The position numbers were made by a program, and so were the translations under genes. The notes beneath the pieces were generated by a model that searched no databases, was not told where the DNA came from, and saw only the letters and a program-made list of their open reading frames with translations. From Stylophora pistillata (lineage: Eukaryota), in the NCBI RefSeq assembly GCF_002571385.2, contig NW_019217784.1, positions 1,111,387 to 1,175,386 on the forward strand: a stretch of DNA of 64,000 bases, given 5' to 3'. Below, piece after piece: positions 12,190 through 15,100 of this stretch. Each line of letters opens with the position of its first letter. Position 1 is the first letter of the stretch.

Positions 12190-15100
12190 ATGCCGAGTGT
12201 TCGAATCAAAGAAGCTTATCAGAATACTAAGCATGTCATTGATGGCATCGAGTTGAGCTGGAGAGTTGAGGAATTGAAGGAAAAGGCAGCAGAGAAGACG
12301 AACATACCGATTAACCAGCAGAGTAAGATGATCATTAGACTTTCTTTTAACCCACAAAAGTGTCTGTTTTTACCACTATTTCCTCCCATTTCTTCCATAA
12401 AACTTAACAGTTAGTTATTGTTGTTTATATATATAACATTAAGTGACTAGAAGGAAACACAGTACACATGATTCGCTGCAACTCTGAGTTGCGTGCGTTA
12501 AGCACTCATCAGGCAGATTTAAATCTGCCAGATGAGTGCTTAACGCACGAAACTCAGAGTTGCAGCGAATCATCTGTACTGTGTTTCCTTCTAGTCACTT
12601 AATGTTATATACCGCTCTACACAAATGTGTATCAAGTCCTTTTTAACAGTGCTGGCTACAATTCACAATTAATATCTATATATATATATCTATAAACTGA
12701 GCTCATTACTGACATCAAACAATGGGGTTGCCGAATGCGCTTAAGGGAATACTTTGGTAATGACGACGATAGTAACACAGAGCTTGACAATGACAACACC
12801 TACAAGAAACCATCGAATTAGGTGCTGCCTCCGGGCAGAGATCTAGCTTAGACTGCTATTTAAGTGGAGTAGAATGTGCCATCTTGCAACACATGCCCCA
12901 CAACATGCTACACTCTAACATCACTAGGCTAGAACGAGAAGCTATTAAATTGCTTAAACGTGACAGTGGTATTGTTATTTTCCAAGCTGACAAAGGCGCA
13001 GCAGTAGTAGTGCAAAACAAAAGGGACTATCTAGCAGAAGCTTACAAGCAACTAAGTGGTACTGATGAAAACGGTAACAAGGTATGTAAACATGTGGCCA
13101 CCGACCCAACGTCTGACTTCGTCATCAGAGTAAAAGAAACTGTACAAGAGGCCCACTCCAAGGGTGTAATCAACACCAATACAGCAGAGTATCTGGTAAT
13201 GGAAAACGCTCAAACAGGAAATATTTATTTCTTACCCAAAATCCACAAACTGCAATGCCCACCTCCTGCTCAACTGATCTGTAACACCATCAAATCTGCC
13301 ACAACTAACATCTCCAAGTGGATTGAGGATCAAGTACAACCACTGGTCGAGAAACTACCCTACCATCTCAAGGACGACAACGACTTTCTCTGTAAACTTG
13401 CTGAACTGAACAAAAATCATACCTTACCACCAGAGACTATTTTAGTAACATTGGACATCAAATCCCTTTACACCAACATCCCACGTGGTGGTGGCATGGA
13501 AGCATGTGAGTACTTCATGCGCCTTGACAATTTTGCAAACAACAGAAGGGAAACTATTGCACAATTCATCAATCTCGTTCTAAATTGTAATAACCTAACC
13601 TTCCAAGGAAAACATTACATTCAACAAACAGGAACAGCTATGGGAATACGAATGGTGCCGAGTTAGGCAAATCTCTACATAGGTTGCTTTGAGGATCGCT
13701 TTTTGAAAGAAGCTGCTGACCGACCTCTTGTCTGGTTCAGATACATCAATGACATTTTTTTCATATGGACATATGGCGAAGAAAAACTCAAACACTTTTT
13801 TTAACAAATGTAACTCTTTTGATCTACACATCAAGTTTGAACAAACCACATCAACTACAAGCATCCCTTTCCTAGACGTTCAAGTGATCATCAAAAACAA
13901 CGGCGAACTTAGCACAGACTTATACACAAAACCTACTGAAACCCATCAATACCTAAACTGGACCAGCCGTCATCCCCAACACACTAAAACATCCATCCCA
14001 GCTTGGCATTGAGGCTACGACACATCGGCTCTGATAACAAGTTTTTTGATAAATGAGCACATGAGCTACACAACATACTGCTTAAGCGAGGTTACAAGAA
14101 TAAGTTGATTAAGGAATGTATCATGAAAGCAAGGAGAACAGCAAGGCAGGAAGTGCTCACAAGCAGACCTATTTCCTCCACTGACCGTGTACCACTTGTA
14201 ATAACTTACAACCCAGCACTGCCAAAAATCCACAGATTCCTCAAGGAAGACCATCAAATACTCTTGACATCGTCCAACATGCAAGGCCATATTCAAAGAA
14301 CCATCTCTCGTTGCCTATCAAAAAGGGCATAATTTAACACAGATGCTTACCCACAAAAGACTGCGATTGCCGATGGCCATTGACACAACCCCCTCCACTG
14401 ATGAATCCCCACAAAATATAAGCAATCCACACATTCAAGTTCCATCTGATACTACCTGTACAATCTGTGGCTGATCATTCCAAACAAACAAAAATCTCAA
14501 AATGCATTTCTCTCGCAAACCATTGCAATTTACTCGTCCCGGATTCTGGCCCTGTAGGGCTGACATAAGATGCAAGTGTTGCAAAACATACGGGCAATTT
14601 ACAGGGACAGTTAAGAGCAGCACTACAAGAGAAATGATACACTGCGACAACACACACCATGCAAGACTAGCAATGTGATACACCTGATAGAATGTAGTAA
14701 ATGTAACGATCAGTATGTAGGCAAGACAGGTCACCCAATTCACCATCGTGGCAATCAACACCGTAGCGACATCAGAGGTGGACATGAAAACATACCCTCT
14801 GCCAGACATTTTAAGAACTGTGGAGTCGATAATTTAAACTTATGGTTATTGAAAAAGTTAGAAGTCAAAATCAAGAAATCAGAAAAGCAAGGGAAAATTT
14901 TTGGATTTTAAGACTCAATCCTACTATCAATAAGCTTACTACATGAATTGTAACCATTTTAATTTATCGATTTTAGTCACTATAACACGTTTCGCTGTTA
15001 TCTATTCTATTTTTATATTATTACGTCATGACATGTTTACTGTTGACACGAATTTTAGATTTGAATATTGCTCATGTAATTAGTATGCTCCTGAGGAAGA

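Follow-up and report, generated by a model that had tools for sequence, protein, structure and literature searches.

A spacerless hammerhead palindrome in a coral intron is probably the decayed stub of a Hydra-clade Penelope-like element

The window, that is, the whole 64-kb stretch of Stylophora pistillata DNA that was analysed, carries on its plus strand a gene whose exons encode a ubiquitin domain. The best single-domain PDB match of its exon 2 is 1x1m, 'Ubiquitin-like protein SB132', which we take to be UBL7. Intron 1 of this UBL7-like gene (12323..16059, plus strand) is defined by spliced RNA reads, 4 + 11 of which support the GT..AG joint 12322>16060. Because the intron begins at 12323, the palindrome described here starts 107 nt past the first donor, in agreement with the approximately 110 nt of the original prediction. 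A bidirectional promoter had also been proposed nearby; its second gene was not confirmed, the minus-strand stretch 11849-12031 having no Pfam match. At about 11849-11990 on that strand, a short frame, MDQFAAGSVVWASAHRDIFWPGVV, points away from the ubiquitin-domain gene; it has no Pfam match and is presumably PWWP-like. A decayed fragment at 9728-10038 (minus strand) resembles the end of another GIY-YIG endonuclease (…KPVARHFNL…GTLNPTGINE…). Elsewhere in the window lie a hairpin at 36869-36991 (53-nt arms, 17-nt spacer), which matches the flank of L076, a locus of the family sample described below, at 99% identity across 79 nt and is thus a dispersed repeat, possibly a MITE; a second hairpin at 24467-24558 (42-nt arms, 8-nt spacer); a 117-bp periodic repeat, probably coding, at 29175-30350; and, at 54600-56200, a long microsatellite of (CAGT/CATT)n.

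The intron also houses a 5'-truncated, frameshifted and decayed Neptune-like Penelope-like element (PLE) with RT (12693..15286, plus strand), recognised by its DKG motif, a CX5CxxC linker and a CxxC inside its GIY-YIG domain (E 0.009), and lying between two (TA)n runs. Its own hammerhead, at about 15090-15125, has a broken stem II, with a C at 15111 in nearly all aligned records. We rejected this neighbour as the parent of the palindrome on account of that hammerhead and of a tblastn search in which its five ORF fragments gave no match to the 119 loci of the sample among the matches listed. Since the neighbour is of the Neptune type and does not match the family loci, the (TA)n site of the intron has received several unrelated insertions. 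Further along, 15296-15368 and 15689-15732 (both minus strand) hold type I hammerheads of the canonical kind (Rfam HH9, E 0.017) belonging to a repeat with a contig depth of 1.8e5 in run X1, compared with about 15 for single-copy sequence, and with RNA reads on both strands; this repeat is likely a coral retrozyme family.

The palindrome itself consists of two inverted arms of 91 nt each (12430-12520 and 12521-12611) that are 97% complementary, have a spacer of 0 nt and form the longest of 15 inverted repeats in the window. Each arm contains one minimal type I hammerhead oriented outward from the centre, with stem I CTGC/GCAG, stem II GTGC/GCAC and a GUU triplet, a motif unlike the hammerheads at about 15090-15125, 15311-15368 and 15689-15732. 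The arms differ at three places (12467/12574, 12491/12550 and 12511/12530), two of them in the ribozyme core: the plus-strand arm reads CAGATGA...GAAAC, i.e. U4A at 12530 with intact GAAAC, and the minus-strand arm reads CTGATGA...GCAAC, i.e. intact CTGATGA with A13C at 12491. The complete CUGANGA/GAAA core is thus absent from both arms. In all these particulars, the inverted-repeat search and the arm alignment bear out the original prediction. As RNA, the palindrome folds at -150.5 kcal/mol (z -29.7; an equally low value in 0 of 200 shuffles), and as DNA its fold reaches -100.4. A single arm folded alone does not cleanly return the hammerhead (z 0 to -0.6), as is expected for a minimal motif of the dimer type. 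Rfam found no hammerhead in the palindrome, only miRNA-hairpin models, and a miRNA precursor was rejected, as all these matches remain under the gathering score and are driven by the hairpin.

To place the arms in a family, metagenome contigs were scanned with a pattern that requires one intact core, which gave at least 120 stretches representing at least 119 loci; seven of the 119 were dropped as unrelated hammerheads (L029, L055, L056, L060, L081, L103 and L118), leaving 112. The sample combines several coral assemblies and subfamilies built from short reads, in which assembly breaks at palindromes, and the public runs that contain the DNA of the window include coral metagenomes. The parent is tied to the subfamily of the window by L120, in which an ORF for RT and GIY-YIG is followed by about 210 nt of pLTR and then by the hammerhead and the 3' end. 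This last part is 91% identical to the window arm over 89 nt and shares its TTAAC loop. The L120 ORF is 81% identical to P0002 (aa 324-702, RT motif 5 and GIY-YIG), a 702-aa protein with RT motifs encoded on a 2217-nt contig; in a homologue search, P0002 was 93% identical to the L030 ORF. Among the matches listed, an ORF end lies upstream of the hammerhead in 5 of the 112 loci, with the stop codon preceding the core by 184-199 nt in L030, L049, L095 and L105, and in a second collection the 5' flanks lead into a Hydra ORF at four of five loci. Loose RNA-read ends at 12522 match the upstream pLTR sequence of L120 in 28 of 30 letters, as judged by eye. A 5' pLTR joined to the ORF start was seen in none of the loci listed. 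The suggestion that the arms are an inverted terminal-repeat pair of a PLE is therefore upheld by their match to the 3' end of an element with RT and GIY-YIG.

Several hallmarks place the parent within the PLEs. In P0002 and four further homologues, the DKG motif is changed to DKT (PADKTT), the L120 fragment ending outside this motif; a CxCX5C linker precedes the endonuclease (CNCRSQQNC in L030, CNCRSKGTC in L120); and the GIY-YIG domain, inspected by eye, reads LIY...YIG with no cysteines between, i.e. it lacks the CCHH motif. Pfam returned no domain for P0001, P0002, P0005 or P0008. DKT, CxCX5C and the absence of CCHH are the Hydra-clade hallmarks according to Craig et al. 2021 (PMC8557442 / bioRxiv 10.1101/2021.04.23.441226), who in the available text also mention hammerheads, (TA)n targets and coral hosts for this clade, and the parent has its hammerhead in the pLTR and TA/TAA-rich flanks. 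Judged by these sequence features, the parent of the window arms is a Hydra-clade PLE. Members of this clade are also characterised by a single ORF in an element shorter than 3 kb; the counterpart seen here is the 702-aa ORF of P0002 in its 2217-nt contig. Related sequence was found in none of eight candidate stretches from viral contigs, as searched with P0002, and in one of 35 from genome contigs, namely L120, a contig of host origin placed in a bacterial bin. L120-L125 are coral-type Hydra PLE sequences in two bacterial MAGs, one of them labelled Endozoicomonas, which most likely reflects host contamination; L120 and L125 also show internal inversions of the ORF.

The family motif is a type I hammerhead with the CUGANGA/GAAA core, an NUH triplet and stems I-III. 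Among the arms listed, the triplet is GUU in 56, GUA in 32 and GUC in 18 of 110 (106 of 110 together). Across 23 family variants, 98.8% of cells are paired, a value to be read with the core and stem II preset by the search pattern, and stem I shows one compensatory change from a C-G to a U-A pair. This compensatory pair and the uniform triplets indicate that the ribozyme is conserved in the parent. L120 carries a natural intact copy, and at 12530 every aligned contig and read of four runs has the intact base T, both of which agree with the predicted complete consensus hammerhead. Minimal PLE hammerheads barely cut as monomers (PMC4209133) and are described as weak and dependent on dimers or a protein in the accessible parts of PMC4209133 and PMC11167929. 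RNA of run X21 that aligns to 12428-12522 stems from a copy at another place, which is transcribed antisense to the hammerhead and lacks 5 nt at 12459 (63 of 91 reads).

Comparison with the family redefines the extent of the insertion. The palindromic arms do occupy 12430-12611, as originally stated, whereas the inserted element runs from 12434 to about 12671 and is asymmetric, because many family copies extend past the arm into sequence that matches 12608-12671. The short arm (12434..12522, minus strand) is a 5'-truncated Hydra-PLE pLTR whose start lies 10 nt ahead of the ribozyme core and which ends at the proximal 3' end of the family (about +72 to +78), a 3' end position shared with L120 and the short relatives; by arm alignment, its hammerhead with the A13C change occupies 12477-12516 (minus strand). 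The long arm (12519..12671, plus strand) has the same pLTR start, carries its hammerhead with U4A at 12525-12564 (plus strand) and a further private change at 12574, and runs about 60 nt further than its partner into the family tail (about 60-70 nt) to the distal 3' end, with 79-80% identity to L050/L030 over about 143 nt. This family 3' extension (12608..12671, plus strand), delimited by comparison with family copies, is present on a single arm only. The unit falls into the class with one short and one long arm. Both arms reach -10 and meet at a self-complementary TTAA common to both (12519..12522), a 4-nt microhomology placed one nucleotide inward of the parent's initiator-like A. On the outside, the element is bordered by its (TA)n target, which occupies 12424..12433 to its left and resumes to its right at 12672-12692. 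The outermost TATA of each arm belongs to this target or is microhomology, and any target duplication is hidden by the (TA)n. Relatives show target duplications of about 11-15 nt (L024, L028, L038, L070, L078, L090, L111 and L114).

The same inverted build recurs across the family. By script, at least 36 of the 112 loci have an adjacent inverted copy among the matches listed; two copies, L027 and L107, remained unclassed by the script. The copies end at two discrete 3' positions, about +72 and +140 from C3. Both 3' ends can be read in 25 units among the loci listed, and every one of these combines a short with a long arm (P 3e-8 even at 50:50), a count that includes L094 and L106, whose similar flanks may represent one site, and none of the three same-flank groups; the remaining 11 of the 36 have one end at a contig end. 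L121 and L123, from the other collection, likewise pair short with long. Copies with enough 5' flank in which no partner was detected are divided between 18 short and 13 long ones; six more were truncated or fell into neither class. In 6 of the 25 units, the long arm consists of nothing but the tail and ends at the start site of the short arm.

A second regularity concerns the 5' ends, counted over 124 arms among the loci listed, of which 29 are censored and 95 readable, with L088 left out for its mirrored flanks. In 68 of the 95 informative arms, the 5' end lies 6-13 nt before C3, with a mode at -11 (22 arms), compared with 4 at 14-38; a smaller cluster of 7 arms at -39 to -48 falls inside the TA run that holds the TATA box. 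The A of an initiator-like TCATT sits at position -11, or at -12 in some subfamilies, and a TATA box starts 27-36 nt before position -11 in all 11 intact copies checked. At the inverted junctions, the arms share 2-4 AT letters or are linked by short jumbled repeats of the same end, and in L123 one arm reads into the ORF and the other stops at the initiator A. Inverted head-to-head builds are already described for PLEs and are common in this family. In the portions of the papers available to us, Craig et al. 2021 (PMC8557442) report an inverted, 5'-truncated copy at the 5' end and a tail confined to one end, Arkhipova 2013 (PMC3846280) reports head-to-head palindromic junctions and the TATA-Inr layout of a Penelope pLTR, and Cervera and de la Pena 2014 (PMC4209133) report hammerheads paired on opposite strands.

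These regularities bear on whether the palindrome is an artefact of assembly or a fold-back product of library preparation, as L088 with its mirrored flanks is, and no record with the window's own letters spans the centre among those listed. In the window, the flanks differ between left and right, the arm ends coincide exactly with the two natural 3' ends of the family, and run X3 contains an exact contig of single-copy depth (12000-12455) that crosses the left junction and extends 26 nt into the arm, X3 being possibly not independent of the source of the window. On these three grounds, and with the same build present in independent assemblies, we find an artefact barely credible.

They also bear on whether the palindrome belongs to a self-standing, palindromic, non-autonomous family, MITE-like or of the non-LTR retrozyme kind. 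Many short copies lack an ORF, and run X21 contains a direct-tandem join of the arm (16 reads), which represents a partial family tandem inside a transcript. The centres, however, vary among copies and the ends are asymmetric, from which we conclude that each unit was made anew; a MITE would have fixed symmetric TIRs and a shared interior. Retrozymes consist of tandem 170-400 nt monomers with no link to an ORF (220-245 nt, with canonical ribozymes, in Cervera and de la Pena 2020, PMC7229834, as far as its text was available), whereas here the 5' flanks enter the Hydra ORF at five loci among those listed and at four of five in the other collection, and the 112 loci listed contain no monomer arrays, only one partial direct copy in L106. 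The reading as a MITE-like or retrozyme family is largely refuted already, and we regard it as extremely unlikely.

The window's A at 12530 is absent from all aligned records, a comparison in which contigs drop rare variants, and the change at 12574 is private to the right arm, since four relatives keep G at this position. As all three arm differences are transversions and no aligned record has the A at 12530, the window bases at the three mismatches may be private alleles or base errors. The original prediction drew attention to the two core changes and offered the hairpin as a candidate Dicer or ADAR substrate that could silence the repeat family, or a DNA cruciform near the promoter. In the corresponding rival reading, the host would have kept the insertion while selection disabled both ribozymes, and the hairpin would feed Dicer or ADAR and help to silence the family, or the DNA would extrude a cruciform. 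The probability of at least two of three differences falling in the core is 0.04-0.05, or about 0.02 with one per arm, in a post hoc test on three changes, and 27 other inverted pairs of the family (L085 left out) show no core enrichment. Their arms are near-identical, with 34 differences over 1706 aligned positions, and the core holds 4 differences in 247 positions compared with 30 in 1459 outside it, where the selection of one arm as intact halves the core expectation to about 2.5. A meaning in the two core changes is accordingly not supported. Spliced reads establish that the host gene is transcribed, the stem is very stable, and small RNAs against Penelope are reported in rotifers (PMC3846280, text available in part). 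Yet within the host pre-mRNA the left arm lies in antisense orientation, and an 87-bp stem would bury both hammerhead motifs, themselves of a kind reported to hardly cut as a monomer, and with such hairpins in at least 36 of 112 family loci among the matches listed, dozens of equivalents exist and the window copy is not special. RNA shows no excess of A>G places over the aligned stretch (25 and 31, compared with 35 and 34 in DNA), a weak test because the reads on the arms stem from other loci: the RNA reads carry flanks of those loci, and no bridging intronic reads occur among those listed, individual differences being covered for 40 of 262 rows. Contig depths summed over the arms reach about 20-30 times the single-copy level, a figure that is not a copy number. 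We therefore hold host selection, silencing or cruciform formation to be very improbable; neutral decay most likely accounts for the three later point changes, both core changes included, and the stub is probably functionless.

Four observations are directly established, namely the identity of the arms to the 3' end of an element with RT and GIY-YIG, the pairing of short with long arms, the 5'-end pile-up and the junction microhomology. Together, they make it very likely, in our judgement, that the palindrome is a decayed Hydra-PLE stub of two 5'-truncated, head-to-head pLTRs with a tail on one arm, likely primed from both nicked strands of the (TA)n target. Frangieh et al. 2024 (PMC11167929, in its accessible sections) report that a Poseidon PLE in vitro cuts AT-rich DNA on both strands and extends each of them, that it initiates at two internal RNA sites bounding the tail, and that its template is uncleaved RNA. 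With these data and our counts of pairing and 5' ends, two-strand priming with one site per strand is the simplest model. We propose the following hypothetical sequence of steps, in which (i) the endonuclease would nick both strands of the AT-rich target; (ii) each event would use both internal start sites once, with one nick priming at the proximal one (+72) and the second nick at the distal one (+140); (iii) the distal cDNA would either stop where the proximal one began, giving tail-only arms, or continue; (iv) both cDNAs would reach the 5' end of an uncleaved RNA that would start at the initiator A before hammerhead stem I; and (v) the cDNA 3' ends would pair via TTAA and be filled in, producing the spacerless palindrome. 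The RNA reads listed contain no site where many molecules begin, and no transcription start was observed; alternative sources of the 5'-end pile-up would be a stall of the RT at the ribozyme structure or microhomology between TTAAA and AT-rich targets.

The main rival to two-strand priming concerns the same element and derives the pair from fold-back self-priming of one cDNA, or from an antisense template, with an endonuclease cut at the proximal site leaving the tail at one end. Self-priming has been proposed for head-to-head palindromes (Arkhipova 2013, PMC3846280) and the tail has been ascribed to endonuclease resolution (Craig et al., PMC8557442) in the available parts of these papers, and the near-identity of the arms in the 27 pairs is what such copying would give. 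Fold-back copying cannot, on the other hand, make the tail-only long arms of 6 of the 25 units, as these have essentially no sequence in common with the short arm. The loop-less TTAA centre fits two paired strand ends better than a hairpin, and the arm of L123 that enters the ORF contrasts with its partner ending at the initiator A. We consider fold-back self-priming unlikely on this evidence and prefer two-strand priming.

As to whether every PLE insertion primes both strands at two fixed internal RNA sites, with the cDNAs running off the 5' end and annealing in a strong-stop-like manner, we see even chances. If so, head-to-head inverted pLTRs and a one-sided tail would be explained without an antisense template, and palindrome centres would map PLE transcription starts from genome sequence alone. 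The origin of these inverted repeats and of the one-sided tail is called open in the accessible text of Arkhipova 2013, Craig 2021 and Frangieh 2024. The strict pairing of short with long arms and the 5'-end pile-up at a TATA-initiator yield a concrete, testable insertion model, and a Hydra element whose start sites are clearly mapped lends itself to in vitro work on it. Taken alone, the locus is ordinary transposon debris, and the family data are of modest mechanistic value.

Among the closest known systems, the parent shares with the Hydra clade an ORF of about 700 aa, DKT, CxCX5C, the lack of CCHH, a C-terminal GIY-YIG, a hammerhead in the pLTR, (TA)n or AT-rich targets and a cnidarian host (Craig et al. 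2021, as far as available); the window, in contrast, holds a 240-bp stub without an ORF, and the assignment is by hallmarks. With the Penelope insertion unit, our family has in common head-to-head inverted copies, a palindromic junction, a tail at one end and the TATA-Inr layout (PMC3846280; Craig 2021, Fig. 2 legend). It differs in that the tail measures about 60-70 nt (+72 to +140) instead of 30-40 bp, that the window unit is reduced to two pLTR stubs, and that the 25 of 25 short and long pairs and the 5'-end pile-up are counted here, no such counts being found in the available parts of PMC3846280 and Craig 2021. Metazoan non-LTR retrozymes resemble the palindrome as type I hammerhead repeats in corals, and the motif at 15311-15368 fits their kind, whereas the palindrome does not (PMC7229834, available portions). 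Poseidon PAc shares the two RT starts bounding the tail, the nicking of both AT-rich strands and the uncleaved RNA template; it belongs to another clade, and inverted pairs are not addressed in the accessible sections of PMC11167929, in which the word 'inverted' occurs once and refers to a blocking group.

Within an open-access library, we found neither an application of LINE-1 twin priming to PLEs nor a statement of the rule that pairs short with long arms. In twin priming, cDNA synthesis is primed by both target strands, and microhomology joins the resulting inversion. Products of this kind are exactly what the tail-only long arms of the Hydra family look like, whereas the second priming site is fixed here and the arms often overlap, resulting in a palindrome.
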